From positions 523-64,522 of the forward strand of contig JAZQGY010000015.1 of assembly GCA_045540295.1 (NCBI GenBank): a stretch of 64,000 nucleotides of DNA. Direction: 5' to 3'. Shown in pieces: positions 19,476-63,816 of the stretch (its first letter is position 1; every line of letters starts with the position of its first letter). The notes beneath the pieces were generated by a model. The model searched no databases. It was not told the DNA's origin and worked only from the letters and a program-made list of their open reading frames with translations. Source of the DNA: Clostridia bacterium (GTDB lineage Bacteria; Bacillota; Clostridia; UMGS1840). The translations under genes and the position numbers were made by a program.

Positions 19476-19501
19476 AAAGATGCTGTTTGATTAGCCCATT
19501 C

Positions 19502-20611: not shown

Positions 20612-20630
20612 AAAAAATTCCTCAATTTGT

Positions 20631-25127: not shown

Positions 25128-25169
25128 GTTTTTTCCCTTCCTTTTTTTCACAAAATAATAAAAATATAT

Positions 25170-25436: not shown

Positions 25437-25467
25437 CACTTAGCACAATATGCATTTGTCTTCGGGC

Positions 25468-27360: not shown

Positions 27361-27370
27361 TATTTTTTAA

Positions 27371-27560: not shown

Positions 27561-27655
27561 CACCTCATCCGTCAAAACCTACGGTTTTGCCACCTTCCCC
27601 TCAAGGGGAAGGCGAAAAAGTGTTGCTTTTTTGCGGTCTGTGTGCTTTTACAAGC
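27561..27655 (-). repeat. R3+R2 composite (stop-proximal module plus hairpin/GATGAGGTG module) immediately 3' of ybeY
   Basis: Minus sense: GGCTTGTAAAAGCACACAGACCGCAAAAAAGCAACACTTTTTCGCCTTCCCCTTGAGGGGAAGGTGGCAAAACCGTAGGTTTTGACGGATGAGGTG. A near-identical copy lies at 57298-57394. Confidence 0.85.
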
Positions 27656-28136
27656 CGTCCGCAACCTGCGAGAGAATCTCTTTTTCACGACCTCGCATCA
27701 CAACCTTATCCTCCTCCACCATATGGTCATAACCAAATAAATGGAGTAAGCCGTGAAGGGTTAAATAGCATAATTCCCGCTGGTAGGTGTGACCGTATTC
27801 CTCTGCCTGGGACGCAATTTTCTCATGGGAAAGCATTAAATCCCCCAGCACCACCAAACCGGTCTCGGGATCGTAATCGTATTCTTGCAGCTCTTCTGCC
27901 AGAACTTCAGGTTCTTGATAAAATAACATGGGAAAAGACAACACATCAGTAGGCTTATCAATGTCTCGTTGCTCACGGTTAATCTGACGGATGGTTTCAT
28001 TATCCGTCACCGTGACGGTTAAAAGAACCTCAAATTCGGGATTTATAATGTCCAGACACCGATTTAAAAATGCGGTCAGTTCTTCTTCTTGGGAGAACAC
28101 GTCCTCCACTTCGTTATAAAACTCTATTTTATGCAT
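27648..28136 (-). CDS. ybeY: rRNA maturation RNase YbeY
   Basis: HGLLHLFGYDH metal motif. Start at ATG 28136; the track extension would overlap degV. Confidence 0.88.
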   Translation of the reverse strand: MHKIEFYNEVEDVFSQEEELTAFLNRCLDIINPEFEVLLTVTVTDNETIRQINREQRDIDKPTDVLSFPMLFYQEPEVLAEELQEYDYDPETGLVVLGDLMLSHEKIASQAEEYGHTYQRELCYLTLHGLLHLFGYDHMVEEDKVVMRGREKEILSQVADGL

Positions 28137-28146
28137 GGTAAACCTC

Positions 28147-29025
28147 TTAGTAAAGCACCTGCTGATTCCGTTTTTCACCTAAATAGCAAATCCCCACAAC
28201 TTCGGGACCTGCATTAATCACGATACAGGGGCCAATCAGCACGGTTTCCAACGGTTTTTCCTTGATGGTATCTTTGGCAAGCTTCATAAAATCCTTGCCG
28301 TCGTTCTTCCCGTGAAGCAGGATATATTTCTTGTCGGCTCCCATTCGTTCTGCCCCAATTTTGCAAAGCGTGTCCATAGCTTTGGGAATGCCTCGGACCT
28401 TCTGGCTGGTCACGGAATCTCCACCCGTTAAACACATAATGGGTTTAATCCCCAAAAGCTCTCCCGCAATGGCTGCTGCTCCGCCGATTCTGCCTGATTT
28501 TTTTGCATACTTCAAATCGTAAACGGTGAAGTACACTTCCAGACGGGTAAACCAGTCCTCCAGATAATTTAAAATAATTTCGGCAGGCTTGCCCTCTTTT
28601 GCCATTTTTGCCGCCGCAATCACTGGGTAACCGTAGCAATAGCTGTAAGAACCTGTATCCACCACGGTAATTTTCATTTTGCAGTCGGGCATGTCGCCGT
28701 AAAACATCTGGCGTGCCAGCTGGGCAGAATTATTGGTGGAAGAAGCCTTTCCGTTGATGGTAACGATAATCAGATCGGTCACATCGTCTTTGTATGCCGC
28801 TTTAATGGCATCTAAAAATTCAAAGGGAGGAATCTGTGCCGTGGTGGGAATTTCATCCCCATCGGGCAGAAGATTATAAAATTCCTCTTTGGTAAAATCG
28901 TAGGCTTCTTTATATTCTTTCTGATTCATGGTAATGGTCATGGGAAGCAACTGAATATCGTATTTTTGCGCAGTTTTTAAGTCGATATCACTTGCGGTGT
29001 CCACACAAATTCTGATGTTTGCCAT
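28147..29025 (-). CDS. DegV family fatty-acid-binding protein
   Basis: ICVDTASDI, TTAQIPP and an SGRIGGAAA-type C-terminal motif. Confidence 0.85.
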   Translation of the reverse strand: MANIRICVDTASDIDLKTAQKYDIQLLPMTITMNQKEYKEAYDFTKEEFYNLLPDGDEIPTTAQIPPFEFLDAIKAAYKDDVTDLIIVTINGKASSTNNSAQLARQMFYGDMPDCKMKITVVDTGSYSYCYGYPVIAAAKMAKEGKPAEIILNYLEDWFTRLEVYFTVYDLKYAKKSGRIGGAAAIAGELLGIKPIMCLTGGDSVTSQKVRGIPKAMDTLCKIGAERMGADKKYILLHGKNDGKDFMKLAKDTIKEKPLETVLIGPCIVINAGPEVVGICYLGEKRNQQVLY

Positions 29026-30404: not shown

Positions 30405-30965
30405 ATGCAGGTAAACGGCTTTAAAAAATCCATGTTCGGCGGCCTTAAAAAAGAGGAAGTGCTTTCCTATTTGGAGCAGATGTCCCGTGATGTGGAAGCA
30501 AAAATCCGCAATAAGGATGACGATATTCGTGAGCTGAAAAAGGAAGTTTCCGATAAAACAAACACCATTTCGGAATTAAAACAGCAGCTGGAAGATCAGA
30601 GGGCGTCCTACGAAGAAAAACTTGCCAACGAGCAAAAGGAAGCTGCCCAAAATTTGGAGCGCCTTCGTGAAGAATTCCGTAAGGAAAAAGAAGAAATGCA
30701 GGAAAAATTAAGCGACCTGAAGGCTCAGTTTACCTTGGAAAAGGAAAAAATCGGCCGTGCTTTGGTCACCGCAGAGGAAGCGGCAAACAAAATTCTTGCC
30801 GATGCAGGCAAAGAAGCCGACGAAATGATTGCCGAAGCCAAACGGAAAGTAGATGTGGAAAAAGAGCGCTACAAAAAACAAAAGGCAGATGTGACCGATT
30901 TTACCTATGATATTAAGAAGTTAATGGAAAAATTATCATCCGACTTAAAAGAACGTTTGGAATAA
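30405..30965 (+). CDS. DivIVA-like coiled-coil protein
   Basis: N-terminus FKKSMFGGLKKEEVLSYLEQM followed by an extended charged heptad-rich coiled coil. Confidence 0.5.
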   Translation: MQVNGFKKSMFGGLKKEEVLSYLEQMSRDVEAKIRNKDDDIRELKKEVSDKTNTISELKQQLEDQRASYEEKLANEQKEAAQNLERLREEFRKEKEEMQEKLSDLKAQFTLEKEKIGRALVTAEEAANKILADAGKEADEMIAEAKRKVDVEKERYKKQKADVTDFTYDIKKLMEKLSSDLKERLE

Positions 30966-30977
30966 TCGTTCTCTTGC

Positions 30978-31084
30978 GGCTTGACAAAAGGCGCAGAACC
31001 GTTAAACCTCATCACTCGGTAGGCCTTCGGATGACCCCTGTGGGTTCGGTTTTCCAATTCTGCATCCTTTTCTCTGCACCTTAC
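30978..31084 (+). repeat. R1 modular 3'UTR element (copy with the compensated AAAAGG/CCTTTT arms)
   Basis: GGCTTGACAAAAGGCGCAGAAC..AACCTCATCACTCGG..CTTCGG..GACCCCtgtGGGTT..ATTCTGCATCCTTTTCTCTGCACCTTAC. A terminator, AGGCAT..ATGCCTTTT, follows. Confidence 0.8.
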
Positions 31085-31186
31085 ATTTTTGTATGATATA
31101 GAAGGCATGGGATTTCCTATGCCTTTTCTTTTTTAGATAGATGTTCTTTTTCTTTGTTGCCAAAGAAAAGAATTTTTTAAAAATTC

Positions 31187-42360: not shown

Positions 42361-42476
42361 GGGCTAATCAAACAGCGCCCTGTTGGAAAGGTAAAATGGC
42401 ACACAATTGGTGAAGTTCACCGCTATAGTATAGCTTTTTGTTCAATTTCCAAATTCTGCATCCATTTTCCTGCACG
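42361..42476 (+). repeat. R1 modular 3'UTR element (degenerate copy)
   Basis: TGGGCTAATCAAACAGC right after the dnaN stop, then TAAAATGGCACACAAT..AAGTTCACCGC..GCTATagtATAGC..AATTCTGCATCCATTTTCCTGCAC. Confidence 0.65.
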
Positions 42477-42558
42477 TTTTGATGACGTTAGATAACATCT
42501 TTGAAGAAGTGAATCCTTTCTAAAAAAAAAGAAACCAAAAAAGGAGAACCCCTGCACT

Positions 42559-44295: not shown

Positions 44296-44895
44296 ATGAT
44301 AGCAATTATTGATTACGGTGCAGGAAATCTGTTTGGGGTTTCCAATGCGCTAAAACAGTTTACCAAAGAAGTGGAAATCACTTCCGACAAAGATACCATC
44401 CGTGCTGCCGACCATGTGATTTTGCCCGGTGTTGGAAGCTTTGACGATGCTATGGGAAGTATGAACCGCTCCGGTTTAATTGAAACCGTTTATGAAGTGA
44501 TTGATAAAAAAACTCCTTTTTTGGGAATCTGCGTGGGGCTTCAGATGTGCTTTGAGAAATCCGAGGAAGGGGTATTACCCGGTCTTGGCATTTTCCCCGG
44601 TGAAATCAAAAAGTTTCCCGTGGATATCTGCAAAAAGGTACCTCAGATTGGCTGGAATCGGGTAACCACCAAGGAAAGTCCCTTGTTTTTGGACTTGCCT
44701 GATGACTACTTCTATTTTGTGCATAGTTATTATTTACAAGCCAAAAACCGTGATGAAGTGATTGCAACGGCAGAATACGGTATTCCTTTTGACTGCGCTT
44801 ATCAGAGAGATAACGTGTTTTTAACTCAGTTTCATCCCGAAAAAAGCGGCAAAACAGGGCTAAAGCTACTTGAAAATTTTTTAGCAGTGAAATAG
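44296..44895 (+). CDS. hisH: Imidazole glycerol phosphate synthase subunit HisH
   Basis: IDYGAGNL, GICVGLQ (catalytic Cys), VPQIGWN and FHPEKS. Confidence 0.9.
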   Translation: MIAIIDYGAGNLFGVSNALKQFTKEVEITSDKDTIRAADHVILPGVGSFDDAMGSMNRSGLIETVYEVIDKKTPFLGICVGLQMCFEKSEEGVLPGLGIFPGEIKKFPVDICKKVPQIGWNRVTTKESPLFLDLPDDYFYFVHSYYLQAKNRDEVIATAEYGIPFDCAYQRDNVFLTQFHPEKSGKTGLKLLENFLAVK

Positions 44896-45337
44896 CCTTC
44901 TCCTTTGAGGAGAAGGGGGACCGCTTGCGGTGGATGAGGTGTTTTGGAATGAATCCGTTTCAGAATCAAAAACTGACCGACAATGCCAAATCTTTACGAA
45001 AAGAAATGACGAAAGAAGAACGGCATTTATGGTATGATTTTTTAAAAACATTACCCGTTACTGTCCATCGGCAAAAAGTCATTGGAAGCTATATTGTGGA
45101 TTTTTATATCGCATCTGCCAAATTAGTGATTGAACTGGACGGTTCCCAGCATTTTGAAGATGGACATCAACTACGGGATATCAAAAGAGACGAATACCTG
45201 ATGAAATTAGGGATTCGGGTACTTCGATATACTAATTTAGAAATTCAAAAAAACTTTCAAGGTGTTTGTTTGGATATTGGAAACCATTTAGACACCTCAT
45301 CAGTCACTTCGTGACAGCTTCTCCTCAAGGAGAAGCC
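44895..45337 (+). mobile_element. DUF559 gene bounded by hairpin-bearing inverted ends (R2 full-length element)
   Basis: Left end: GCCTTCTCCTTTGAGGAGAAGGGGGACCGCTTGCGGTGGATGAGGTG. Right end: CACCTCATCAGTCACTTCGTGACAGCTTCTCCTCAAGGAGAAGCC. Miniature copies lie at 48548 and 63362. Confidence 0.55.
44949..45314 (+). CDS. DUF559 (Vsr/restriction-endonuclease-like fold) protein
   Basis: LRKEMTKEERHLWYDFLK..FHRQKVIGSYIVDFY..KLVIELDGSQH..RDEYL..G..VLR is typical DUF559. The last 8 codons and the stop lie inside the right terminal module. Confidence 0.8.
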   Translation: MNPFQNQKLTDNAKSLRKEMTKEERHLWYDFLKTLPVTVHRQKVIGSYIVDFYIASAKLVIELDGSQHFEDGHQLRDIKRDEYLMKLGIRVLRYTNLEIQKNFQGVCLDIGNHLDTSSVTS

Positions 45338-47288: not shown

Positions 47289-47294
47289 TTTGCG

Positions 47295-47400
47295 GTTTGA
47301 TAAATGGCGCATAATTCGTTAATCTCACCGCTCGCAGTACACACAAGTACAGCTTCGGGTTCGATTAGCAAATTCTGCATCCATTTCCCTTCACCTTAGG
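47295..47400 (+). repeat. R1 modular 3'UTR element
   Basis: GTTTGATAAATGGCGCATAAT..AATCTCACCGCTC GCAGTACacacaaGTACAGC TTCGGGT..ATTCTGCATCCATTTCCCTTCACCTTAGG. Confidence 0.85.
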
Positions 47401-47477
47401 TTGGTGGATTGGAAATGCGGTGGATGAGGTGTTTTGTGCCCTTTTTCTGCGCCTTAGAGGTGGCATCACCAAATTAT

Positions 47478-47515
47478 AATTTTGATTATCCTAACAGAGA
47501 CGAGGAGCAAAGAAA
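47478..47515 (+). promoter_or_regulatory. Shared leader module upstream of trpS
   Basis: AATTTTGATTATCCTAACAGAGACGAGGAGCAAAGAAA followed by the ATG. Compare 41227-41262 (dnaN) and 27361-27402 (holB, minus strand). Confidence 0.6.
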
Positions 47516-48686: not shown

Positions 48687-48727
48687 ACTTTCTCAGAAAA
48701 TTAAATTCCAAAAAAGGAGTGTTTTTT

Positions 48728-49717
48728 ATGAACAAGTATATCGGACATCCTGGCCAGTTGGGTGGCGTGGAAGAAGTTACCTTAGCAAAAGGAAAAGGCA
48801 AGGGTATGAATCTTCTGCAGATTAAAAATACCAAAGGAGTGGACATCACTTTGGTGTGTGACAGATGTATGGACATTTCCCGTCTGTCTTATAAAGGGGT
48901 AAACTTAGGTTGGTTCTCCCCTGCAGGCTATGTGTCTCCTGCTTTGTATGACGATGCCAAAGGCAGAGGATTCTTGCAGAACTTTACTGCCGGCTTTATG
49001 ACCACCTGTGGCTTAACTGCAGTTGGCGGTTCCTGCATGGACGACGGAGAAAGCACCCCCATGCACGGCTTAATCAGCAATATCCCTTGCGATAGCTACA
49101 ACTACTGGGAAACCGAAGACGAAATCATTGTGGAAGCGGTTGCTACCGAAGCATCCTTATTTGCCTGCCACACCCAGATGAAACGTACTTATAAAATTTC
49201 CAAAACCGAAGACAAGGTAACCCTGTCTGACACCATTACCAACATTGGCAACAAAACCGCACCCAGCCAGGTGCTCTATCATATCAATTTAGGATACCCC
49301 CTGCTTTCCGAAAATGCAAAAGTGATGATTCCCGAAATCTCCAGCAAACCCACCGCTGATGCATTTATTCCCAAATACGATCAGCGAAAGGTGATGGAAA
49401 AACCTCAGGCAGGTTTTTCGGAAGAATGCTATGTGTATGATGTGGCGGAAACTGACGGCAAAGCAAAAATCGGTATTTACAATCCTGATGTGAACGCAGG
49501 CTTTACCATGACCATGTCCAAAGAAACGCTCCCCTTCTTAACCGAATGGAAAATGATGGGTGAATACGAATACGTGCTGGGATTAGAACCCGGTAACGCT
49601 TGGCCCTGCGGCAGAAAAACCATGAGAGAAAACGGAGAATTAAAATTCTTAGAACCCGGCGAATCCATTACCACCGAGATTGTGTTGGAATTTACCGACA
49701 AAGACTTCGACCTCTAA
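48728..49717 (+). CDS. Aldose 1-epimerase-superfamily protein (DUF4432-like)
   Basis: 329 aa with a beta-rich mutarotase-like sequence (HGLISN, YHINLGYP). Start at ATG 48728, behind AAAGGAG. Confidence 0.55.
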   Translation: MNKYIGHPGQLGGVEEVTLAKGKGKGMNLLQIKNTKGVDITLVCDRCMDISRLSYKGVNLGWFSPAGYVSPALYDDAKGRGFLQNFTAGFMTTCGLTAVGGSCMDDGESTPMHGLISNIPCDSYNYWETEDEIIVEAVATEASLFACHTQMKRTYKISKTEDKVTLSDTITNIGNKTAPSQVLYHINLGYPLLSENAKVMIPEISSKPTADAFIPKYDQRKVMEKPQAGFSEECYVYDVAETDGKAKIGIYNPDVNAGFTMTMSKETLPFLTEWKMMGEYEYVLGLEPGNAWPCGRKTMRENGELKFLEPGESITTEIVLEFTDKDFDL

Positions 49718-49720
49718 GAC

Positions 49721-49850
49721 GGCTTGATAAATGGCGCATAATGAATGAACCTCACCGCTCGCCGTACACGCGGTACGGCTTCGGGTAACCACCTTCGGTG
49801 TTCGGTTTCTTCATTCTGCATCCATTTCTCTTCGCCTTGGATAGAGGTTT
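49721..49850 (+). repeat. R1 modular 3'UTR element (best-preserved copy)
   Basis: GGCTTGATAAATGGCGCATAAT gaatg AACCTCACCGCTC GCCGTACacgcgGTACGGC TTCGGGT AACCACCttcGGTGTT CGGTTTCTTC ATTCTGCATCCATTTCTCTTCGCCTTGG. The terminator at 49875-49905 follows. Confidence 0.88.
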
Positions 49851-49874
49851 GGAAAAGAAATATGGAGACCGCAA

Positions 49875-49905
49875 AAGGCATGGATTTTATTCCATGTCTT
49901 TTTGT
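49875..49905 (+). terminator. Intrinsic terminator after the DUF4432-like gene and its R1 element
   Basis: AAGGCATGGA ttttat TCCATGTCTT followed by a T-run. Confidence 0.75.
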
Positions 49906-49908
49906 TTA

Positions 49909-50052
49909 AGGTGAAAATTTGTTGACACAAATTTTAATGATAATGCCTTTTGCTATCCGCAAACCTCACCTCTCAGCGTACCAATGTACGCTTTCGGGTA
50001 ACCCCTATCGGGTTCGGTTGATTGATTCTGCGTCCTTTTCCTGCACCTTAGG
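49909..50052 (+). repeat. R1 element, B-subtype (different left arm)
   Basis: AAGGTGAAAATTTGTTGACACAAATTTTAATGATAATGCCTTTTGCTATCCGC AAACCTCACCTCTC AGCGTACcaatGTACGCT TTCGGGT AACCCCtatcGGGTT..ATTCTGCGTCCTTTTCCTGCACCTTAGG. An orphan left arm, GGCTTGATAAATGGCGTACAAT, follows at 50060-50082. Confidence 0.8.
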
Positions 50053-50129
50053 TGGTGGCGGCTTGATAAATGGCGTACAATCTTTCGCAACAAAACAAAC
50101 GGGGCGACACACAGGTCACCCCCTACATA

Positions 50130-50174
50130 CCTCGCCCTTTGGGAGAGGTGGCACCGAAGGTGACGGAGAGGGCG
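50130..50174 (+). repeat. R2-like solo end (variant)
   Basis: CCTCGCCCTTTGGGAGAGG TGGCACCGAAGGTGAC GGAGAGGGCG. It has the same hairpin-hairpin-tail layout as 44895-44941 and 57342-57394. Confidence 0.5.
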
Positions 50175-50193
50175 TGCGCCTTAAAATACGGCA

Positions 50194-50235
50194 TAAAAAA
50201 AGACGAAATTCGAAAACGGATTTCGTCTTTTTTGT
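50194..50235. terminator. Bidirectional terminator (serves trmB on the minus strand)
   Basis: AGACGAAAT tcgaaaacgg ATTTCGTCT, flanked by A7 and T6. Confidence 0.75.
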
Positions 50236-50293
50236 TTGCGTAGAGCTTGTAGGGAACGACCTGTGTGTCGTTCCGTTTTTTCTCGCCATTTAT

Positions 50294-50953
50294 CTATCCT
50301 TTAAATCTTGCCACCAATTTCTGAATGGGGTACCCCATCCCCGAAAACCGTGTTTCATACTCGGTCATAATATTGCCTTCGGGATACTCATTATGCAAAT
50401 CAAAGGTTAAAAGAAGCCACTCCATGCCGTATTCCTTGGTTTCTAACAGAGAAAAACGGAACAGACGCACATTGTCTGTTTTAAAGTGAAGCTCCCCGCC
50501 GTTTGCCAACACGGTTTCGTATTTCTTCAAAAACAGTTTATGGGTTAAGCGTTTTCTTCTGTGGCGACCTTTGGGCCAGGGGTCGGAAAAGTTTAAGTAG
50601 ATCCGAGCAATGCTTCCCGGCGCAAACATACTATCTAACAGGTTCGCATCCAGGTTGGCAAAACGAAGATTCAAAAGACCCTCTGCTTTGGTTGCCGCAA
50701 TGGCAATCACATCTGCACATTTTTCAAATGCAATATAGTTAATATTGGGGTTTTGTTTTGCCAACGTGGTGATAAAATCACCCTTTCCCGCTCCGATTTC
50801 AATATGTACGGGATTGCTGTTTCCAAAAATTTTTTGGCAGTCAATAAAGTCTGCTTTCGCATCGGCATTCTGTTCAATATCGGAAAAGTCCAGGAAAAAA
50901 TCCTTATAAAATTCCAAACGCTTGGGCGTGTTCTTCTTTTTTCGTAATCGCAT
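50294..50953 (-). CDS. trmB: tRNA (guanine46-N7)-methyltransferase
   Basis: The SAM motif IEIGAGKGDF and FSDPWPK. Start at ATG 50953. Confidence 0.88.
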   Translation of the reverse strand: MRLRKKKNTPKRLEFYKDFFLDFSDIEQNADAKADFIDCQKIFGNSNPVHIEIGAGKGDFITTLAKQNPNINYIAFEKCADVIAIAATKAEGLLNLRFANLDANLLDSMFAPGSIARIYLNFSDPWPKGRHRRKRLTHKLFLKKYETVLANGGELHFKTDNVRLFRFSLLETKEYGMEWLLLTFDLHNEYPEGNIMTEYETRFSGMGYPIQKLVARFKG

Positions 50954-53788: not shown

Positions 53789-53835
53789 GAAGCTTGTAAC
53801 AGAACATAGACCGCAAAAAGCATAGGCTTTTTATA
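53789..53835 (+). repeat. R3 stop-proximal module after spoIIE
   Basis: GAAGCTTGTAACAGAACATAGACCGCAAAAAGCATAGGCTTTTTAT. Compare GGCTTGTAAAAGAACACAGACCACAAAAAAGCAACATTTTTTAT at 57298. Confidence 0.7.
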
Positions 53836-53849
53836 TCAATTTTTTCAGA

Positions 53850-53960
53850 TGAAATGCCTTTTGCTATCCGGAAACCTCACCTCCTAGAGTACCAATGTAC
53901 GCCTTCGGGGAATCCTGCGGTTCGGTTTGGAAATTCTATGCCCTTTTCCTTCACCTTGGA
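53850..53960 (+). repeat. R1 element, B-subtype
   Basis: ATGCCTTTTGCTATCCGG AAACCTCACCTCCT AGAGTACcaatGTACGCC TTCGGGG AATCCtgcGGTT..ATTCTATGCCCTTTTCCTTCACCTTGG. Confidence 0.8.
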
Positions 53961-53965: not shown

Positions 53966-54006
53966 GAAAAAAAGACTGCAAAGCTTTTGGCTTTTGCAGT
54001 CTTTTT
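53966..54006. terminator. Bidirectional terminator between spoIIE and the ireB-like gene
   Basis: GACTGCAAAGC ttttg GCTTTTGCAGTC, flanked by A- and T-runs. Confidence 0.8.
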
Positions 54007-56583: not shown

Positions 56584-57297
56584 TTGAAAAAAATGCAACC
56601 TATTTATAAAAGAGTATTGTTAAAAATCAGCGGCGAAGCTTTAGCAGGGGAAAACGGCTTCGGCTTGGATTTTAATGTAATCGGCGATATTGGTAAACAG
56701 GTGAAAAAATGCGTATCCATGGGTGTTCAGGTAGCTATCGTTGTAGGTGGCGGTAACTTCTGGAGAGGCAGAACCGGCGAAAATATGGACAGAACCCGTG
56801 CAGACCACATGGGTATGCTGGCAACTGCCATCAACTCCTTAGCCATTGCAGATTCTCTGGAAGCATTAGGCGTTCAGGCAAGAGTGCAGACCGCCATTGA
56901 TATGCGTCAGATTGCAGAACCCTATATCCGTGGCAGAGCAGAACGTCACTTAGACAAAGGCAGAGTGGTTATTTTCGGTTGCGGAACCGGGAATCCCTAT
57001 TTCTCCACCGACACTGCAGCAGCTCTTCGTGCCGCAGAAATTGGTGCAGACGTGATTTTACTTGCCAAAAAAGTGGATGCAGTGTACGATTCTGATCCGG
57101 CAGTAAACCCCGATGCGAAAAAATTCGATACCATTTCCTATATCGATGTGTTAAACAGAGGCTTAGGTGTAATGGATTCCACCGCAACCTCTCTTTGCAT
57201 GGACAACAAAATTCCGATTCATGTGTTTGGCTTATCCGAACCGGAAAATATCATTAAAGCCATCACCGGCGAAACAATAGGAACGTTAGTGAAATAG
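56584..57297 (+). CDS. pyrH: UMP kinase
   Basis: [23 protein letters not shown], and a [10 protein letters not shown]-type motif ([14 protein letters not shown]). The start could be TTG 56584 or ATG 56593. Confidence 0.92.
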
Positions 57298-57394
57298 GCT
57301 TGTAAAAGAACACAGACCACAAAAAAGCAACATTTTTTATAGCCTTCCCCTTGAGGGGAAGGTGGCAAAACCGTAGGTTTTGACGGATGAGGTG
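57298..57394 (+). repeat. R3+R2 composite immediately 3' of pyrH (twin of 27561-27655)
   Basis: GGCTTGTAAAAGAACACAGACCACAAAAAAGCAACATTTTTTATAGCCTTCCCCTTGAGGGGAAGGTGGCAAAACCGTAGGTTTTGACGGATGAGGTG. Confidence 0.85.
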
Positions 57395-57402
57395 TCATTT
57401 TT

Positions 57403-57549
57403 CAAAGTGAAAATTGTTTGCAACAATTTTAGATTGTAATTGCTTTTTTGTTACGAACAAACTTCACCTCTCGGCGTACCTGTGTACGCCTTCGGGTAAC
57501 CCCTACGGGTTCAGTTTGTCCGTTCTGTGCCCTTTTCCTGCACCTTAGG
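57403..57549 (+). repeat. R1 element, B-subtype
   Basis: AAAGTGAAAATTGTTTGCAACAATTTTAGATTGTAATTGC.. AAACTTCACCTCTC GGCGTACctgtGTACGCC TTCGGGT AACCCCtaCGGGTT ..GTTCTGTGCCCTTTTCCTGCACCTTAGG. Confidence 0.8.
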
Positions 57550-57680
57550 CAGCGGCATAATAAACGACGCCAAATGGATGAACCTCATCACTCGGCGTAC
57601 AGCACGTACGCCTTCGGGCTCGTCAAGGCGTTGCCTTGATTCGATTTGTGAATTCTGCATCCATTTCTCATCACCTATGG
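57550..57680 (+). repeat. R1 element, A-subtype, directly abutting the previous copy
   Basis: ..AACCTCATCACTC GGCGTACagcacGTACGCC TTCGGGC TCGTCAAGGCgtTGCCTTGATTCG ..ATTCTGCATCCATTTCTCATCACCTATGG. Confidence 0.8.
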
Positions 57681-57841
57681 TGAGAAAGAATGTTTAGAGA
57701 ATCAACCAAGATATATTAACAAAAGAACCAAAAAACCGTAAGGATTCTAAAGATAAAATCCTTACGGTTTTTCAAGGAAATTTTTTGATTTTCCAATCCC
57801 GAAAAAATGTAGAAATATACGAAAAAACCAAGAAAAAATCA

Positions 57842-58054: not shown

Positions 58055-59116
58055 ATGTACTTAATTCTGGAAAATAAAACAGTTTTCAAAGGCAAAAGCT
58101 TTGGTGCTTACCGTGAAGCGGTAGGCGAACTGGTGTTTTCCACCAATATGCTTGGTTATATGGATACCCTGACCGATCCTGCAAACTTCGGTCAGCTTGT
58201 GATTTCCACCTTCCCCGAAATGGGTTGCCACGGCACCATCGCGGAAGAAATGGCAGGAGAAAAGGCATCCTGTTTTGGTTATATTGTGAAAGATTGGTGT
58301 CAGTCACCGTCCAACTGGCGTATGGAGGGTGATCTTGACACTTTTTTAAAGGAAAAAGACATTCCGGGAATTTACGGCATTGATACCAGAAAGCTGACGA
58401 AAATGGTTCGTGATGCCGGCACTATGAATGCCAAAATTTCCTTTACCCCCGACTTTACCGATGATATTGCAACCTATAAAATTGTGGATGCGGTAAAATC
58501 CGTGTCCGTCCCCGAAAAGATTACCTCTATGGGTAAGGATGCCAAATATCGCGTAGTGATGTGGGATTTTGGTGCCAACAACAATATGATGAAGGCATTT
58601 TTAGATGCAGGCTGTGATGTGACCAAAGTGCCTTACAACACCCAGGCAGAAGAAATCATCGCAATGCGTCCCGACGGAGTGATTTTATCCGGAGGTCCCG
58701 GGGATCCCACCCAGTTAATTGACGTGATTACCGAAATCCGCGGGATAAAAGACATTCCCACCTTGGGAACCGGGCTGGGGCATCAGCTTTTGGCATTATC
58801 TCAAGGTGCGAAAATAGAAAAATTGAAATTCGGCCACCGTGGTGCATCCGTTCCTGTTCGGAACGAAACCACCGGAAAAGTGTATATTTCCTCTCAGAAT
58901 CACAGCTACCAGGTGGTAAACGATTCTGTAGAATCCTTTGGGAAGGTTTCCTATCGCAATGTGAATGACGGCACCGTGGAAGGCATTGACTATGCCAACA
59001 TTCCTGCCTTTTCCGTGCAGTTTAACATTGAAAGTTTCTCCGAGCCTATGCATCCGGGCTTCTTGGTAGACAGATTTGTAGAAATGATGGAGGGAAAAAA
59101 AGATGCCGTTAAATAA
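58055..59116 (+). CDS. carA: Carbamoyl-phosphate synthase small (glutaminase) subunit
   Basis: A GIDTRKLT motif and a GATase domain (the usual catalytic GxCxG position reads GTGLGHQLL here). The start could be ATG 58055 or GTG 58037. Confidence 0.85.
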   Translation: MYLILENKTVFKGKSFGAYREAVGELVFSTNMLGYMDTLTDPANFGQLVISTFPEMGCHGTIAEEMAGEKASCFGYIVKDWCQSPSNWRMEGDLDTFLKEKDIPGIYGIDTRKLTKMVRDAGTMNAKISFTPDFTDDIATYKIVDAVKSVSVPEKITSMGKDAKYRVVMWDFGANNNMMKAFLDAGCDVTKVPYNTQAEEIIAMRPDGVILSGGPGDPTQLIDVITEIRGIKDIPTLGTGLGHQLLALSQGAKIEKLKFGHRGASVPVRNETTGKVYISSQNHSYQVVNDSVESFGKVSYRNVNDGTVEGIDYANIPAFSVQFNIESFSEPMHPGFLVDRFVEMMEGKKDAVK

Positions 59117-62100
59117 GGAAATCAAAAAAGTATTAGTAATCGGATCAGGCCCTATCATCATCGGTCAGGCAGCAGAGTTTGACTATGCAGGTACCCAGGC
59201 TTGCCGCGCCCTAAAGGAAGACGGTCTGGAAGTGGTGCTGGTGAACTCCAACCCTGCAACCATTATGACCGATAGCAAGATGGCAGACAAAATCTATATT
59301 GAACCTCTGACCTTGCCTGTTATCAAAAGAATTATTGAAAAAGAAAAGCCGGACAGCCTGCTCTCCACCTTAGGGGGACAGACCGGGTTAACCTTATCCA
59401 TGCAGTTGGCAAAGGAAGGCTTTTTGGACAAGCATAACGTAAAACTTTTAGGCGCAAATCCCGAAACCATCGACAAAGCGGAAGACCGCCAGATGTTTAA
59501 GGATATGATGGAAAAAATCAATCAGCCCGTCATTCCCTCTAAGGTTGTAAATACCTTAGAAGATGCACTGGCTTTTGCACACACCATCGGCTATCCTTTA
59601 ATTATCCGTCCTGCCTTTACCTTAGGGGGTACCGGCGGCGGTATTGTCAACAATGAAGAAGAAATGATTGAGATTACCACCAACGGTCTGCGTCTTTCTC
59701 CCATTACCCAGGTTTTGGTAGAAAAATGTGTGTCCGGTTGGAAAGAAATCGAATTTGAAGTAATTCGTGACAGTAAGGGCAACTCCATCACCGTCTGCAG
59801 TATGGAAAACTTAGACCCCGTTGGGGTTCATACCGGTGACTCTATCGTAATTGCGCCGGCAGTTTCCTTATCTGATTATGAGTATTCCATGCTCCGCCGT
59901 GCAGCTTTGGATATTTTAAATGAATTAAAAATTGAAGGCGGTTGTAACTGTCAGTTTGCCTTAAATCCCGATAGCTTTGAATATGCGGTTATTGAAGTAA
60001 ACCCCAGAGTTTCCCGTTCCTCCGCATTGGCATCCAAAGCAACCGGTTATCCCATCGCAAAGGTTGCGGCAAAAATTGCCATCGGCTATCAGTTAGATGA
60101 AATTTTAAATGCAGTAACCGGCAAAACCTACGCTTGCTTTGAACCTGCCATTGACTATGTGGTAGTAAAATTCCCCAAATTCCCCTTCGATAAATTCGTG
60201 TATGCGAAACGTGACTTGGGAACCCAGATGAAGGCAACCGGGGAAGTTATGGCAATCGGCGCCACCTTTGAAGAAGCTATTATGAAAGCCGTTCGCGGTG
60301 CAGAAATTTCCAAGGATTCTATGCGTCATAAAGACTTGGTTGGTCTTTCTGACGATGTGATTATGGAAAAACTTCACCAGTGCAACGACGAGCGAATTTT
60401 CGTGGTGTATGAAGCCATTACCCGTGGCGTATCTATTGATACCATCTATGATATCACCAAAATTGACCGTTGGTTCTTATCCAAACTGGCAAATATTTTC
60501 AAAATGGAAAGCCGTTTAAAAGAAGAAACCTTAACAAAAGAACTTCACTTAGAAGCCAAGAAAATGGGCTTTTTGGATAAGGTTATCGAAAGACTGTCGG
60601 GCCAAAAAATTCCCGAAAAAATCTATGCATCCTATAAGATGGTAGACACCTGTGCCGGTGAGTTTAACGCTCAGACTCCCTACTTCTACTCTTCCTATGA
60701 GGAAGCCAACGAAGCAAGAGAGTTTATCGACAATAACCCCACCGACAAGAAAACCGTTATTGTATTCGGTTCCGGCCCCATCCGAATCGGTCAGGGGATT
60801 GAGTTTGACTATGCCTCTGTTCATTGTGTATGGGCACTGCAGGAGGCAGGCTACGAAGTGGTGATTGTGAACAACAACCCGGAAACTGTTTCCACCGACT
60901 TTGACACTGCAAACCGTCTGTATTTTGAACCCTTGAATCCCGAAGACGTCATGAACGTTATTCATACGGAAAAACCCTATGGCGTGGTAGTTGCTTTTGG
61001 TGGCGGTACTGCTATCAAATTAACCAACTTCCTCCAGGAAAACGGTGTTCGCATTTTGGGTACCGGTGCAGACAGTATTGATATGGCGGAAGACAGAGAA
61101 CGGTTTGACGATCTTCTGGAACGTTTAAACATCAAACGTCCTCAGGGCTTTACTGTGTTAACCGAAGAAGAAGCGTTGGAAACTGCAAACCGTATCGGTT
61201 ATCCCGTTTTGATTCGTCCCTCTTATGTATTGGGCGGTCAGAATATGATTATCGCCTGGAATGATTCCGATACCAAGGAATATATGAAGATTATTCTTCA
61301 CGGTCTGGACGAAAATCCCATCTTAATTGACAAATATTTAATGGGTACCGAAATTGAAGTGGATGCCATCTCCGACGGGGAAGACATTTTAATCCCCGGT
61401 ATTATGGAGCATATTGAGCGTGCAGGGGTTCACTCCGGTGACTCAATTGCGGTTTATCCGGCATTCAATTTAGATGTTCCCATGATTCAAAAAATCATTG
61501 ATTCCACCAAAAAACTGGCAGTTGCCTTAAATACCAAAGGTTTGGTAAACATCCAGTATTTGGTGTATGACAATGAATTATATGTCATTGAAGTAAATCC
61601 CCGTTCCTCCCGTACCGTTCCCTACATCAGCAAGGTTACCAAAGTTCCCATGATTGACCTGGCAACCCGTGCAATGCTGGGCGAAAAATTAAAGGATATG
61701 GGTTACGGCACCGGTCTTTACAAAAACTCTCCTTATGTGGCAGTAAAAGTGCCTGTGTTCTCCTTTGCCAAACTCTTGGGCGTGGATATCCACTTAGGAC
61801 CTGAAATGAAATCCACCGGGGAAGTTTTGGGCATTGGTGCAAACTTAGAAGAAGCACTGTATAAAGGGTTAATTGCAGCAGGTTACAAACTGCAGAAAAA
61901 AGGCGGCGTATTCATTTCCGTAAGAAATTCCGACAAAGCGGAAATCTACGGCGTGGCAAAAGGATTTTATGATTTAGGCTTCACCGTGTATGCAACTCAC
62001 GGTACCGCCAAAATTTTATCCGATGCAGGAATTCCGGTAATTCCTGTGGATAAAATTCACGAAAATGCCGAAAACAATACCTTAACCTTAATTGAAAGCG

Positions 62101-63146
62101 GAAAAGTAAACTTTGTTGTTTCTACCTCTGCAAAAGGCAGACTGCCGGAACGTGACAGTGTAAAAATCAGAAGAAAAGCAGTAGAAAGAAGCGTTCCCTG
62201 CTTCACCTCTATTGATACCGCAAATGCTGTTATTAACTCCATGAAGGGAAAATATTCTGAAGCTAGCATCGAAATTGTGGATATCAACAATATGCGTGAA
62301 GAAAAAATCGCAGTAGAATTCACCAAGATGCAGAGCTTAGGAAACGACTATATCTATTTTGACTGCTTAAATAAACAAATTGATAATCCGGAAGCTTTGG
62401 CTATCCGTCTCTCCGACCGTCACTTCGGCATCGGTGCAGACGGTGCGGTAGTCATTGAAGCTTCCAAAACCGCAGATGCGAAAATGAGAATTTTCAATTC
62501 CGACGGTACCGAAGGCAGAATGGGCGGTAACGCCATCCGTTGCGTTGGTAAATATCTGTATGACAAGGGCATCGTTCCACGCGAAGATATGGAAATTGAA
62601 ACCTTGAGCGGTGTGAAAAAGCTGAAGGTGTATCCCTTGGAAGGGGAAGTTGTGGCAGCTCGTGTGGATATGGGCAAGGCAGAAACCAAGCCGGAGCTTG
62701 TTCCCGTGGTTTCCGATAAAGAAATCGTGAAAAACGAACCCATTACCGTGGCGGGAGAAGAATTCCATGTGACCTGTGTGTCTGTGGGCAATCCCCATGC
62801 GGTCGTATTTACCGACAATTTAGACACCGTGGATATGCAAAAAGTTGGTCCCGAATTTGAATATCATCCCATGTTCCCCGACAGAGTGAATCTGGAAGTG
62901 GTTACCGTAATTGATAAAAACACCTTGAAAATGCGTGTTTGGGAACGTGGTATTGGCGAAACTTTAGCGTGCGGAACCGGTGCTTGTGCAGCAGCCGTTG
63001 CAGCAATCTTAAACGGTTACTGCGAAAAAGATACCGACATCACCGTGAAGCTTCCCGGTGGCGACTTAAAAATCCGTTACACAGATTCGTCCATTCAAAT
63101 GACTGGACCTGCAGTGAAATCCTTCGAAGGTAAGGTATCTATCTAG
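59103..63146 (+). CDS. carB: Carbamoyl-phosphate synthase large subunit fused in frame to a diaminopimelate-epimerase-like domain
   Basis: Residues 1-1063 are a complete CarB: two ATP-grasp halves and an MGS-like domain ending ..IEIVDINN. Residues 1064-1347 (from ATG 62292) read MREEKIAVEFTKMQSLGNDYIYFD...ERGIGETLACGTGACAA.., which is the DapF fold. No stop codon separates the two parts. Confidence 0.8.
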   Translation: MPLNKEIKKVLVIGSGPIIIGQAAEFDYAGTQACRALKEDGLEVVLVNSNPATIMTDSKMADKIYIEPLTLPVIKRIIEKEKPDSLLSTLGGQTGLTLSMQLAKEGFLDKHNVKLLGANPETIDKAEDRQMFKDMMEKINQPVIPSKVVNTLEDALAFAHTIGYPLIIRPAFTLGGTGGGIVNNEEEMIEITTNGLRLSPITQVLVEKCVSGWKEIEFEVIRDSKGNSITVCSMENLDPVGVHTGDSIVIAPAVSLSDYEYSMLRRAALDILNELKIEGGCNCQFALNPDSFEYAVIEVNPRVSRSSALASKATGYPIAKVAAKIAIGYQLDEILNAVTGKTYACFEPAIDYVVVKFPKFPFDKFVYAKRDLGTQMKATGEVMAIGATFEEAIMKAVRGAEISKDSMRHKDLVGLSDDVIMEKLHQCNDERIFVVYEAITRGVSIDTIYDITKIDRWFLSKLANIFKMESRLKEETLTKELHLEAKKMGFLDKVIERLSGQKIPEKIYASYKMVDTCAGEFNAQTPYFYSSYEEANEAREFIDNNPTDKKTVIVFGSGPIRIGQGIEFDYASVHCVWALQEAGYEVVIVNNNPETVSTDFDTANRLYFEPLNPEDVMNVIHTEKPYGVVVAFGGGTAIKLTNFLQENGVRILGTGADSIDMAEDRERFDDLLERLNIKRPQGFTVLTEEEALETANRIGYPVLIRPSYVLGGQNMIIAWNDSDTKEYMKIILHGLDENPILIDKYLMGTEIEVDAISDGEDILIPGIMEHIERAGVHSGDSIAVYPAFNLDVPMIQKIIDSTKKLAVALNTKGLVNIQYLVYDNELYVIEVNPRSSRTVPYISKVTKVPMIDLATRAMLGEKLKDMGYGTGLYKNSPYVAVKVPVFSFAKLLGVDIHLGPEMKSTGEVLGIGANLEEALYKGLIAAGYKLQKKGGVFISVRNSDKAEIYGVAKGFYDLGFTVYATHGTAKILSDAGIPVIPVDKIHENAENNTLTLIESGKVNFVVSTSAKGRLPERDSVKIRRKAVERSVPCFTSIDTANAVINSMKGKYSEASIEIVDINNMREEKIAVEFTKMQSLGNDYIYFDCLNKQIDNPEALAIRLSDRHFGIGADGAVVIEASKTADAKMRIFNSDGTEGRMGGNAIRCVGKYLYDKGIVPREDMEIETLSGVKKLKVYPLEGEVVAARVDMGKAETKPELVPVVSDKEIVKNEPITVAGEEFHVTCVSVGNPHAVVFTDNLDTVDMQKVGPEFEYHPMFPDRVNLEVVTVIDKNTLKMRVWERGIGETLACGTGACAAAVAAILNGYCEKDTDITVKLPGGDLKIRYTDSSIQMTGPAVKSFEGKVSI

Positions 63147-63285
63147 GCTCGATAAATGGCGCATAATCCGTGAATCTCACCGCTCGGCGTACCGTTATGC
63201 TGTACGCAGTACTACGGCTTCGGGCTTGTCAAGGCGTTGCCTTGATCTGATTTCTCCATTCTGCATCCATTTCTCATTGCCTTAC
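63147..63285 (+). repeat. R1 modular 3'UTR element directly after the carB-dapF stop
   Basis: GGCTCGATAAATGGCGCATAAT ccgtg AATCTCACCGCTC GGCGTAC..GTACGC.. CTTCGGGC TTGTCAAGGCgtTGCCTTGATC ..ATTCTGCATCCATTTCTCATTGCCTTAC. Confidence 0.85.
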
Positions 63286-63361
63286 ATCAGGTCAAATGAT
63301 AAAAGACGAAATTCTTTCGCAAAAAGCAAAGAATTTCGTCTTTTTTTTGGTACGGGCGAAA

Positions 63362-63477
63362 GCCTTCTCCTCGAGGAGAAGGGGGACCGCTTGCGGTGGA
63401 TGAGGTGGCAAGATGCGAAGAATGTTATATAACACCTCATCAGTCACTTCGTGACAGCTTCCCCTCAAGGGGAAGCC
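63362..63477 (+). mobile_element. Miniature (116 bp) two-ended derivative of the DUF559 element
   Basis: GCCTTCTCCTCGAGGAGAAGGGGGACCGCTTGCGGTGGATGAGGTG, then 25 nt, then CACCTCATCAGTCACTTCGTGACAGCTTCCCCTCAAGGGGAAGCC. Confidence 0.7.
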
Positions 63478-63524
63478 TATCAGAACAGAGCTTCTCTCCT
63501 ACAATTTTTTCTTCTAAAAAATAC

Positions 63525-63553
63525 TTGTAAATTTAAAAAATTTATGATACAAT
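63525..63553 (+). promoter_or_regulatory. Sigma-A promoter (TTGTAA-17-TGaTACAAT) with no protein gene behind it
   Basis: TTGTAA at 63525-63530 and TACAAT at 63548-63553. Confidence 0.65.
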
Positions 63554-63559
63554 AAACTT

Positions 63560-63816
63560 GCGACATAATCCTGTATATTGTACCCCAATGGGAATACTTT
63601 TGGTAAAAGGTATTTCCTCTATTTCTTATCCGTTGGGGTATGGATTATGTCGCAGCAATCGAGGATAATACTTTTTCGGTGTGTCTTCGATTGGAGGCAC
63701 ACTTTTTTATTTTTAGAAGGAAAACCGAAAACCCCGCCATTATTTTTGCAATGGAGAAAAGTTGCCGGAAGACGGAGGCTTGGATTGCAAAAATCCCGGC
63801 GGCAGTTTCTTTTTTG
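63560..63816 (+). ncRNA. Candidate structured RNA (unclassified): a 94-nt nested three-helix domain plus two terminator-like hairpins
   Basis: P1 is GCGACATAATCC (63560-71) with GGATTATGTCGC (63642-53). P2 is TACCCCAA (63581-88) with TTGGGGTA (63633-40). P3 is GGAATAC with GTATTTCC. The hairpin GTGTGTC..GGCACAC plus T6 lies at 63679-63710. The hairpin CCGCC-ATTTTTGCAAT..ATTGCAAAAAT-GGCGG plus a T-run lies at 63734-63816. Confidence 0.45.

Follow-up and report, generated by a model that had tools for sequence, protein, structure and literature searches.

A modular, strongly folded element that stands directly behind stop codons is repeated along a 64,000-nucleotide stretch of contig JAZQGY010000015.1 of a Clostridia bacterium (in the following, the window means this whole stretch). 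The element belongs to a real, clade-specific family of interspersed repeats of uncultured gut Clostridia related to Congzhengia, which is placed in the Oscillospiraceae. The family occurs in an A form of ~105-145 nt and a B form of ~175-260 nt, and its orientation is tied to that of the upstream gene and not to replication.

Ten copies had been listed in the preliminary description of this DNA. A profile hidden Markov model built from nine plus-strand intervals and searched against the window with nhmmer recovered all nine plus-strand copies (E-values of 1e-13 to 1e-29) and nothing comparable elsewhere in the window; nhmmer together with a covariance model (CM) placed their starts at 30978, 42382, 47291, 49718, 49931, 53840, 57451, 57551, and 63143. 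The tenth copy, on the minus strand, was missed by nhmmer and added by an unfiltered CM search (33.8 bits, E = 7.5e-5), which located it at 19390-19499 and not at 19338-19475 as proposed before. A 28-nt degenerate pattern, comprising the 3′ strand of helix P2 and the right arm of the element (see below), matched the window eight times and none of 100 shuffled versions of it.

With this pattern, the genomes of 185,579 species were surveyed in one scan. It yielded 73 loci, ~64 of them in ~15 metagenome-assembled genomes (MAGs) from ruminant and other guts, labeled Clostridia bacterium, Congzhengia sp., Candidatus Heritagella or Oscillospiraceae; the remaining ~9, in unrelated phyla, correspond to the number expected by chance. 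According to nhmmer, the 73 loci hold more than 110 copies, and a second pattern, drawn from the core of the element, led to 45 further loci in metagenomes, which brings the copies outside the window to more than 150 in related gut Clostridia MAGs and metagenomes. Several of the related loci (named by numbers with a prefixed L) are syntenic with the window at 73-93% identity. The copies were grouped into 85 arrays, namely 56 singles, 22 pairs, five triples, and two quadruples. Collections of plasmids, phages, and viral contigs contained no match to the repeat. The earlier statement that the element fits no known RNA family was confirmed, since Rfam at gathering threshold reported for the whole window a tRNA and a tandem glycine riboswitch alone, and a permissive Rfam scan of 49650-50120 returned noise (best E-value 0.79, all far below gathering). 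Literature searches did not find a description of the family either.

The six-part architecture described before (left arm, C-box, hairpin 1, the CTTCGGG motif, hairpin 2, and right arm) holds. Read in the sense direction, the A form begins with the 5′ strand of P1 (GGC-UUGAU-AAAUGG-C-GCA-U-AAU), followed by the 5′ strand of P2 (e.g., GAACC), the junction UC-ACC-GCUC, and P3, the GUAC hairpin 1 (G[C/G][C/U]GUAC, loop, GUAC[G/A][G/C]C). Next come UUCG-G[G/A]U-AA, an optional, interchangeable hairpin P4 (hairpin 2), UUC, the 3′ strand of P2 (GGUU...), the 3′ strand of P1 (AUU-C-UGC-AU-CCAUUU-CUCAUC-GCC), and UUA; at the DNA level, the element ends are TA(A/C)GGC...GCCTTA. In the fold of the sense strand, the left and the right arm form the long, irregular P1, which closes a junction of P2, P2b, P3, and P4, with the short P2b stacked on the conserved P3. 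The junction sequences UCACCGCUC and CUUCGGGU are conserved as well. The arms, previously seen as rough reverse complements of each other, form imperfect inverted repeats in which bulges are conserved and paired positions covary, and thus qualify as terminal inverted repeats. For the focal copy at 49721-49836, the RNA has a minimum free energy of -45 kcal/mol (z-score -4.27).

Selection on the fold, for which compensated arms (AAATGG/CCATTT becoming AAAAGG/CCTTTT), covarying hairpin 1 stems, and exchanged hairpins 2 had been cited, was borne out by the alignments. RNAalifold applied to 36 A copies gave 29 pairs, 14 of them compensatory. Among 100 copies, 90.3% of the alignment cells were paired (30-43% when the partners were slid by one to three columns) and 23 of the 29 pairs had changed on both sides, values that none of 500 shuffles reached; this alignment was fitted to the CM, which favors structure, but a MAFFT alignment nevertheless gives the same pairs. 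Further compensated P1 arms are found in relatives (AAACAG/CTGTTT and AATAGC/GCTATT), and covariation extends to the non-terminal helices P2, P3, and, in the B form, P1b. The A-form features of the window are the following, with bit scores referring to the CM and the parts of the focal copy given as motif positions:

49721-49836, plus strand: focal A-form copy (138.3 bits)
49721-49742, plus strand: left arm of the focal copy (P1 5′ strand)
49743-49760, plus strand: P2 5′ strand and C-box of the focal copy
49761-49779, plus strand: hairpin 1 of the focal copy (P3, GCCGUAC/GUACGGC)
49779-49788, plus strand: CUUCGGGUAA of the focal copy
49789-49800, plus strand: hairpin 2 of the focal copy (P4)
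49801-49812, plus strand: P2 3′ strand of the focal copy
49813-49836, plus strand: right arm of the focal copy (P1 3′ strand)
30975-31088, plus strand: A-form copy with shortened hairpin 1 (97.1 bits)
42361-42381, plus strand: mini left-arm hairpin remnant ahead of the A copy at the dnaN site
42382-42484, plus strand: degenerate A-form copy after dnaN (50.1 bits)
47291-47403, plus strand: A-form copy without hairpin 2, 5 nt past the stop codon of an aminotransferase gene (109.2 bits)
47432-47457, plus strand: solo right-arm remnant of the B type
57551-57683, plus strand: A-form copy in tandem behind the B copy of pyrH (97.7 bits; left arm 57554-57575, right arm 57651-57675)
57728-57775: bidirectional terminator after the tandem at the pyrH site
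63143-63289, plus strand: A-form copy with extended hairpin 1 (92.5 bits)
19390-19499, minus strand: degenerate copy, 2 nt past the TAG stop codon of rodA (19502-20695, minus strand; 33.8 bits)

The focal copy begins 3 nt past the TAA stop codon of the open reading frame (ORF) 48719-49717, and the copy at 30975-31088 lies 12-13 nt past the stop codon of a DivIVA-like ORF (30405-30965), with a terminator starting ~12 nt downstream. At 63143, the first G of the element completes the TAG stop codon of the carB-dapF fusion ORF, and a repeated terminator of the ‘AAGACGAAATTC’ type follows. The degenerate copy behind rodA has P1 with AAACAG/CUGUUU and hairpin 1 with GCGUAC/GUACGC, and is followed by a bidirectional terminator.

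The anatomy of the B form had to be corrected. What had been taken for its left arm, ‘ATGCCTTTTGCTATCCGC’, is the 3′ strand of an additional helix, P1b, whose 5′ strand is GCAAAAGGCAT; the supposed left arm AUGCCUUUUGC has its partner, GCAAAAGGCAU, ~70 nt further upstream. The actual left arm (GGCTTGTAAAAG.ACA.AGACC) is located ~90 nt upstream, directly behind the stop codon; its pairing partner is the right arm (GGCUUGUAAAAG-CA-CACAGA with UCUGUG-CC-CUUUU). When 27 B copies of diverse lineages were aligned with MAFFT, this long-range P1 was paired at 87%, with four of 11 pairs compensatory, and P1b at 89%, with ten of 11 pairs compensatory (24-46% paired in the slid controls); variants of the P1b pair are GCAAAAGGCAU/AUGCCUUUUGC, ACAAAAAAGCAA/UUGCUUUUUUGU, GCGACAAGCAU/AUGCUUGUCGC, and AUCAAAGACA/UGUCUUUGAU. 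In every B lineage, the loop closed by P1b holds a canonical intrinsic terminator in sense orientation, the sequence of which is different in each lineage, and in the B subfamily of the window it also holds a covarying AT-rich hairpin. The tandem of a B and an A copy reported at the pyrH site was found again, with the B copy extending over 57297-57549. The B-form features of the window are:

49846-50052, plus strand: B-form copy (50.5 bits for the core)
49846-49870, plus strand: left arm of this copy
49871-49881, plus strand: P1b 5′ strand of this copy
49873-49907, plus strand: internal intrinsic terminator of this copy
49913-49936, plus strand: AT-rich hairpin of this copy
49943-49953, plus strand: P1b 3′ strand of this copy
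49975-49992, plus strand: hairpin 1 in the core of this copy
50024-50052, plus strand: right arm of this copy
50060-50081, plus strand: orphan A-form left arm (GGCTTGATAAATGGCGTACAAT), the remainder being replaced by the terminator of the convergent trmB
53789-53959, plus strand: short B-form copy starting at the TAG stop codon of spoIIE (left arm 53789-53812, P1b 53813-53823 with 53854-53864, right arm 53932-53959)
53969-54006, plus strand: terminator following the spoIIE copy
57297-57549, plus strand: B-form copy overlapping the TAG stop codon of pyrH (left arm 57297-57318, P1b 57319-57330 with 57440-57451, AT-rich hairpin 57409-57431, right arm 57522-57549)
27561-27660, minus strand: partial B form with left arm, P1b 5′ strand, and GC-rich hairpin, without core

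Inside the left arm (GGCTTGTAAAAG) of the partial B form lies the stop codon of ORF 27648-28178. A 163-aa ORF with a TTG start codon (49919-50410, plus strand) begins within the AT-rich hairpin of the B copy at 49846-50052, crosses the repeat, and extends into the 3′ end of trmB; since the lengths of the indels between copies are not divisible by three, it was rejected as coding sequence, even though annotation pipelines may still call it. A sigma-70 promoter inside the B form was likewise rejected, its TTGACA and TATAAT being just 11 nt apart and a promoter scan reporting none.

The position of the copies relative to genes was analyzed with gene calls consisting of greedily chosen, non-overlapping ORFs of at least 80 aa. 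A co-oriented upstream gene was present for 107 of 112 copies. Sorted by their flanks, 40 of the 85 arrays stand in sense orientation between co-directional genes and two in antisense orientation between such genes, while 25 lie between convergent genes and one between divergent genes. Random orientation, which the preliminary description had envisaged as a refuting outcome, is thereby rejected at the level of arrays (p = 4e-10), and the proposed co-orientation with the upstream gene stands. The independent metagenome set contained 35 co-oriented and six opposite cases; the single opposite case that was inspected turned out to be a mis-called ORF, since the TAG stop codon of a co-oriented 92-aa gene abuts the left arm. 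Upstream of the elements stand core housekeeping genes in conserved synteny, e.g., dnaN, pyrH, rodA, carB, spoIIE, and genes of tRNA ligases. A single ancestral upstream gene in the distant lineages was considered and rejected, as a variety of genes precede the element there.

The first copy of an array begins -9 to +6 nt from the stop codon, the distance being ≤6 nt in 34 of 43 cases, and the starts 0-13 nt past a stop codon noted for the window are in accordance with the earlier account. In eight cases the first G of the element completes TAG, and in some lineages the stop codon lies inside P1 (distances of -7 to -9). Stop codons at element sites were TAG in 18 cases, TAA in 15, and TGA in none, compared to a background of 22.5% TAG, 65.7% TAA, and 11.7% TGA (p = 6e-5 for TAG), and the TAG share was still about half after orthologous sites had been collapsed by hand. 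The idea that TGATAA in the left arm supplies in-frame back-up stop codons was rejected, since no reading phase is preferred over the others (12:14:10).

Downstream of the arrays, a terminator was seen in at least 45 of 83 cases, mostly with its start at a distance of 10-35 nt, a count obtained with a crude finder that missed several long-stem terminators. The statement that the terminator lies after the element thus applies to A copies, and in B copies it lies inside the loop closed by P1b; the hallmarks of intrinsic terminators, a sense-oriented GC-rich hairpin with a U tract immediately behind it, are shown by this internal module and by the hairpins 10-35 nt after A copies, and the body of the A form itself is not a canonical terminator. 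The terminators behind the elements form repeated families (AAAAGACGAAAUUC... and AAAGGCAUGGA...). As a separate observation, terminator families (AAAAGACGAAATTC..GAATTTCGTCTTTT and GCAAAAGGCATRG..CYATGCCTTTT) are found repeatedly behind unrelated genes, in many cases joined to the 3′ tail of the repeat as one constant unit, at 50205-50245 and 63300-63345 in the window and in L060, L012, L001, L028, L037, L046, L047, L031, and L005. A candidate module consisting of CAAC(A)AAACAAACGG and a hairpin proved to be nothing more than that side of bidirectional or convergent-gene terminators which carries the A-tract.

The window has a GC content of 42.7% and comes from a sporulating Firmicute; it encodes SpoIIE, RodA, DnaN, PyrH, TrpS, TrmB, and a CarB-DapF fusion. 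The gene strand switches near 29 kb, cumulative GC skew is lowest at ~28 kb, and the position of dnaN is 41.3 kb; the window therefore spans the replication origin. Every full copy in it lies on the leading strand of its replichore. Hence, gene orientation and replication orientation are inseparable from the window alone, and the link to transcription rests on the related loci. In L028, a plus-strand A copy stands behind a plus-strand gene, and a minus-strand B copy plus a minus-strand degenerate copy stand behind the convergent minus-strand gene, with one bidirectional terminator between the opposite-strand copies, which are found within 300 bp, and with the entire arrangement within 500 bp; L071 and L036 are arranged similarly. 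The window itself contributes short remnants:

16306-16321, plus strand: left-arm-like remnant (GGCTTGACAAAT) directly after the TAA of the plus-strand ORF 15703-16305, in the minus-strand replichore
50282-50293, minus strand: left-arm-like remnant after trmB, a minus-strand gene in the plus-strand replichore
5506-5522, minus strand: left-arm-like remnant after ORF 5523-5867

The remnants behind trmB and ORF 15703-16305 share the orientation of their gene, against that of the replichore. It follows from these remnants and from the loci of the L028 type that the orientation is tied to the gene and not to replication. Array counts reject an orientation set by the fork weakly, with p-values from 0.006 (20% lagging-strand genes) to 0.08 (13%). 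Concerning distribution, the copies seem to be clustered near the origin, with eight pattern matches in the 64-kb window and ~13 in the whole related MAG JAZNNT, five of the latter on a single 45-kb contig syntenic with the window; fragmentation of MAGs at repeats could contribute to this apparent clustering.

Copies form tandem arrays, exchange modules, and differ between close relatives. Orthologous sites behind dnaN, pyrH, the DUF4432-like gene, carB-dapF, and rodA stay occupied where third codon positions are nearly saturated; the dnaN site is also occupied in L049 and L061, and the rodA site of L018 holds two to three copies. At the pyrH site, L041 and L003 have A alone, the window has B and A, and L016 has B plus an A copy with replaced 5′ half; at the DUF4432 site, L039 and L022 have B and A, and the window has A, then B, then the orphan left arm. 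The copy at 47295 is absent from the orthologous site in L039, L069, and L040 (empty-site alignment), and the spoIIE site in L016 and L022 contains unrelated sequence. In all 14 orthologous pairs, the element diverges more slowly than expected for neutral positions (82-98% identity vs. 50-85% at third codon positions of the adjacent gene), which indicates constraint, gene conversion, or both. Judging by whole hairpins swapped between orthologous copies, e.g., L052 vs. L012, gene conversion between copies certainly occurs.

Regarding mobility, no known insertion sequence (IS) and no clean target-site duplication were found; a clear match to a known IS or to a miniature transposable element with inverted repeats (MITE), accompanied by such duplications, had been envisaged in the preliminary description as a refuting outcome. 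No consistent duplication appeared across orthologous sites, and none is visible in the filled-vs.-empty comparison at 47295. ERIC/IRU and Correia elements are associated with a TA target duplication. ‘TA...TA’ flanks occur here in ~7 of 16 copies read; the TA on the left is that of the stop codon, and the TTA on the right is itself conserved within the element. No solo arm pairs flanking an ORF, as expected for a parent IS, were present in 0.53 Mb of loci plus the window.

Some further observations concern rearrangement. Window positions 63146-63608, downstream of the carB-dapF element, match L047 1178-1618, which lies behind an element after a different gene in MAG JAZNNT, and also L046; the carB-dapF locus of JAZNNT diverges right after the terminator, which implies that a rearrangement breakpoint coincides with the repeat. 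Recurrent insertions (CCGTTATGCTGTACGCAGTACTA or GTAGCATTGCATGCAGCATAA) are present in hairpin 1, located at 63175-63215 in the window, in L023 (4335-4475), L054, L038, L045, L056, L018, L034 (3994-4195), L011, L068, and L024. In MAG JAFUIN, four copies are interrupted at one same point by an identical ~110-nt segment (TGTAGGGGTCGGCGTCCTCGACGACCC...). This has the look of another small insertion element, one with the GUAC hairpin as its target.

The earlier interpretation as either a 3′ untranslated region (3′UTR) RNA element or an orientation-selected MITE is supported, and the tests named for its refutation came out mostly in its favor. In our estimate, there is an even chance that the family is a non-autonomous repeat of the BOX/bcr1 kind that lives as a co-transcribed 3′UTR RNA module or as a terminator cassette. 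Features that would argue for RNA are the orientation following the gene, the adjacency to the stop codon, the position upstream of or around sense-oriented terminators, the conserved junction, and the covarying non-terminal helices. The element would then be co-transcribed with the upstream gene and act in cis as RNA. A terminating ribosome covers ~12-15 nt. The 5′ strand of P1 would start within its reach, and translation might thus open P1, which would close in an untranslated transcript. Folded module and terminator together, the latter as part of the cassette in the case of the B form, may define and protect a stable, nuclease-resistant mRNA 3′ end or mark it for processing. The family would be maintained and spread like BOX, ERIC, and bcr1 by tandem duplication, module exchange, and gene conversion, after first insertions by a putative process that leaves no obvious target duplication.

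A more far-reaching version of this proposal, namely a device of the 3′UTR that is coupled to translation termination and mobile as well, would have no described counterpart, and we regard it as quite unlikely. Here, the left arm would obligatorily lie inside the ribosome footprint, and each round of termination would open P1 and remodel the junction. The fate of the mRNA 3′ end would thereby be decided, in that the transcript might continue past the embedded terminator, be cut within the long P1/P1b duplex, or bind a protein specific to the clade at the conserved UCACC/CUUCGGG junction, and new copies would be installed beside stop codons by a transcription-oriented process without duplication.

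Several observations weigh against a function as RNA. Within the helices, G:U and U:G combinations (96) are barely in excess of A:C and C:A combinations (78); few columns are rich in G:U (e.g., 37 G:U at alignment columns 49/139) and others are rich in C:A. Moreover, folding is no weaker for the antisense than for the sense strand (-47.5 vs. -45 kcal/mol). The fold could therefore equally be that of single-stranded DNA (ssDNA), and on these grounds a 3′UTR RNA element and an orientation-selected MITE cannot be separated by sequence. In the B form, the left arm and the 5′ strand of P1b lie upstream of the terminator and their pairing partners downstream of it, and the long-range helices would therefore form in RNA solely on read-through transcripts. 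L070 contains an intact antisense copy (1975-2106, plus strand, 106 bits) between two co-directional minus-strand genes; at the same site, L034 has sense copies, and the L070 copy could have arisen by inversion in situ or by independent insertion. Gene conversion is another possible source of the high conservation among orthologous copies, and the proposal does not account for the arrival of copies right behind stop codons. Tetraloops of the UNCG type in hairpin 2 were considered as a signature of RNA and discarded, the loops being mostly GUU triloops or CUNC, which are not diagnostic.

The same strand symmetry, with both strands folding and no asymmetry of G:U vs. A:C, would be expected from a purely selfish MITE-like transposon, whose fold serves ssDNA or paired termini in mobilization and whose placement reflects tolerated insertion with no host function. 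The inverted-repeat arms, the frequent degenerate copies and solo arms, the synteny break at an element, and the copy number and type that vary between close relatives (47295 absent in L039, L069, and L040; turnover at pyrH and DUF4432) are in line with such a transposon, and parasitic pneumococcal repeats are likewise enriched between convergent genes (PMC3049150). However, filtering for tolerated sites predicts random orientation and distance and not the 40:2 ratio and the tight spacing of first copies observed here. Neither a consistent target-site duplication nor solo arm pairs around an ORF were found in the loci analyzed, the internal helices P1b, P2, and P3 covary and not the termini alone, and orthologous copies evolve much slower than third codon positions. 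We therefore consider a purely selfish element to be rather improbable, although it has to be taken seriously.

In comparison with the proposed co-transcribed module, it appears very unlikely that the copies are independent small RNA genes, in which a promoter just past the internal terminator would drive the B core and the product could pair in trans with the left arm on the upstream mRNA. A conserved TAnAAT-like hexamer and a TTGACA-like loop do lie between internal terminator and core, and ~35 nt of complementarity connect the mRNA 3′ end with the downstream half. Yet the narrow spacing of the hexamers and the promoter scan without a plus-strand site there speak against a promoter, the TTGACA forms part of a loop on a covarying hairpin and does not recur as a conserved sequence in other lineages, and A copies lack such a region. 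An ssDNA element of the IS200/IS605-PATE or REP/RAYT kind, oriented by the fork and apparently linked to genes as most Firmicute genes are co-directional with replication, would agree with the leading-strand position of all full window copies, with the absent target duplication, and with the weak exclusion by the array statistic. The neighboring opposite-strand copies of L028, L071, and L036, each behind its own gene, the remnants following lagging-strand genes in gene orientation, the dissimilarity of hairpins 1 and 2 with hairpin 2 being dispensable, and the absence of both a conserved GTAG/CGTC head and a fixed 4-5-nt left-flank target make it highly improbable. A target of a site-specific recombinase at gene 3′ ends, such as an integron attC site, would fit the imperfectly palindromic fold of the element (100-140 nt), its conserved bulges, and its position right after ORFs in their orientation and sometimes in arrays, but can practically be dismissed, since the upstream genes are not cassettes, the ends differ from RYYYAAC...GTTRRRY, and the central junction is conserved in sequence where the center of attC is variable.

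As a multicopy, clade-restricted, intergenic, and modular repeat with a compensated fold, the family belongs to the BOX/bcr1 type, a descriptive class that implies no sequence homology. Compared by description, the closest analog is BOX of S. pneumoniae: both are modular intergenic repeats of Firmicutes with paired termini, a folded transcript, and a variable number of modules, and both are enriched at gene 3′ ends. BOX encodes the stop codon of 36 pneumococcal coding sequences (CDSs; PMC3049150), and in the present family the stop codon likewise borders the left arm or is contained in it. In contrast, the orientation of BOX mirrors the coding bias, with ~61% on the leading strand (PMC3049150), whereas the present family is distinguished by its 40:2 polarity, the conserved junction and GUAC hairpin, the terminator embedded in the B form, and another host clade. 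bcr1 of the Bacillus cereus group is a transcribed repeat of ~155 bp with a cruciform-like RNA fold kept by compensatory changes; its distribution varies between close strains, some copies have lost the structure, and 5-bp direct repeats flank it (PMC3184786). The compensatory changes, the variable distribution, and the Firmicute host are shared features; unlike bcr1, the family described here showed no direct repeats at the sites compared, is found in Clostridia MAGs and not in the B. cereus group, and shows a strict link to stop codon and terminator, which is not reported for bcr1.

ERIC/IRU and the Correia elements of Neisseria are MITE-like and co-transcribed, with partly orientation-dependent effects on RNA stability or cleavage (PMC3049150), but they are proteobacterial, are found in either orientation, and have no link to the stop codon. 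SPRITE, a pneumococcal repeat resembling Rho-independent terminators near the 3′ ends of CDSs, is thought to serve as terminator (PMC3049150), which recalls the terminator of the B form and the terminator families behind A copies; SPRITE is, however, essentially one long hairpin with a U-rich tract, and the present element is a multi-helix junction with its halves on either side of the terminator. REP/BIME sequences, implicated in mRNA 3′ stabilization (PMC3184786), are similar as mosaics of extragenic palindromic repeats at operon ends. REP units are simple hairpins of 20-40 nt with GTAG/CGTC heads, linked to RAYT transposases (PMC3733652); the element studied here is three to six times larger, has a conserved junction, and lacks such a head. 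REP/RAYT, PATE derived from IS200/IS605, and integron attC were all rejected as assignments, each failing in at least one defining feature. What makes the family stand out appears to be its near-absolute polarity, its adjacency to stop codons, the conserved multi-helix junction, and a subfamily whose fold wraps an intrinsic terminator.

If the reading as RNA is true, one folded module would sit on the 3′ ends of many core genes across abundant uncultured Clostridia of ruminant and human guts, forming a genome-wide layer of 3′UTR control or protection as shown for few bacterial repeat families. Strict polarity and stop-codon adjacency offer a clean test case for repeats becoming parts of transcripts, and the embedded terminators raise the possibility that terminators spread as cassettes. 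Even a merely selfish repeat would still be unusually polar. In practical terms, the repeat is a clade marker and gives rise to assembly breaks as well as rearrangements in MAGs, and its CM could be offered to Rfam.

The window contains additional repeats. One is a GC-rich double hairpin (GCCTTCCCCTTGAGGGGAAGG...ACCG..CGGT..GGATGAGGTG) at 57342-57394 (plus strand), where it is an insert inside the B copy of pyrH, at 27561-27613 (minus strand), and at 44895-44945 (plus strand), following a hisH-like ORF (44296-44895). It is also found in L039 at ~4105-4150, with no counterpart in the window at 47.4 kb, and in L037, L052, and L017; variants (GCCCTTTGGGAGAGG and CCTCCCTTGCCTAAAGGGAGG) lie at ~50130-50185 and in several loci. 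Three tandem units of ~62 nt (AATTTCGATTAYCTTAAGAAAGACGAGGATCAAAATTC...) at 27360-27550 (minus strand) are located just upstream of the start of ORF 26407-27360, and their GATTATCCTAA..AGACGAGGAGCAAA motif precedes the trpS start codon at 47475-47515 (plus strand); it could be a repeated module of 5′UTRs or ribosome-binding sites.

Among the other features, the tandem glycine riboswitch at 25246-25439 (minus strand) comprises two aptamers (43.4 and 40.7 bits) and is located upstream of the minus-strand ORF 23613-25151, and the tRNA gene at 918-1003 (minus strand; 86 nt, 54.8 bits) has a long variable arm. The 1347-aa ORF at 59103-63146 (plus strand) fuses the large subunit of carbamoyl-phosphate synthase (residues 1-1050) to the diaminopimelate epimerase DapF (1072-1345), a fusion that seems to be conserved in L046 and L037.

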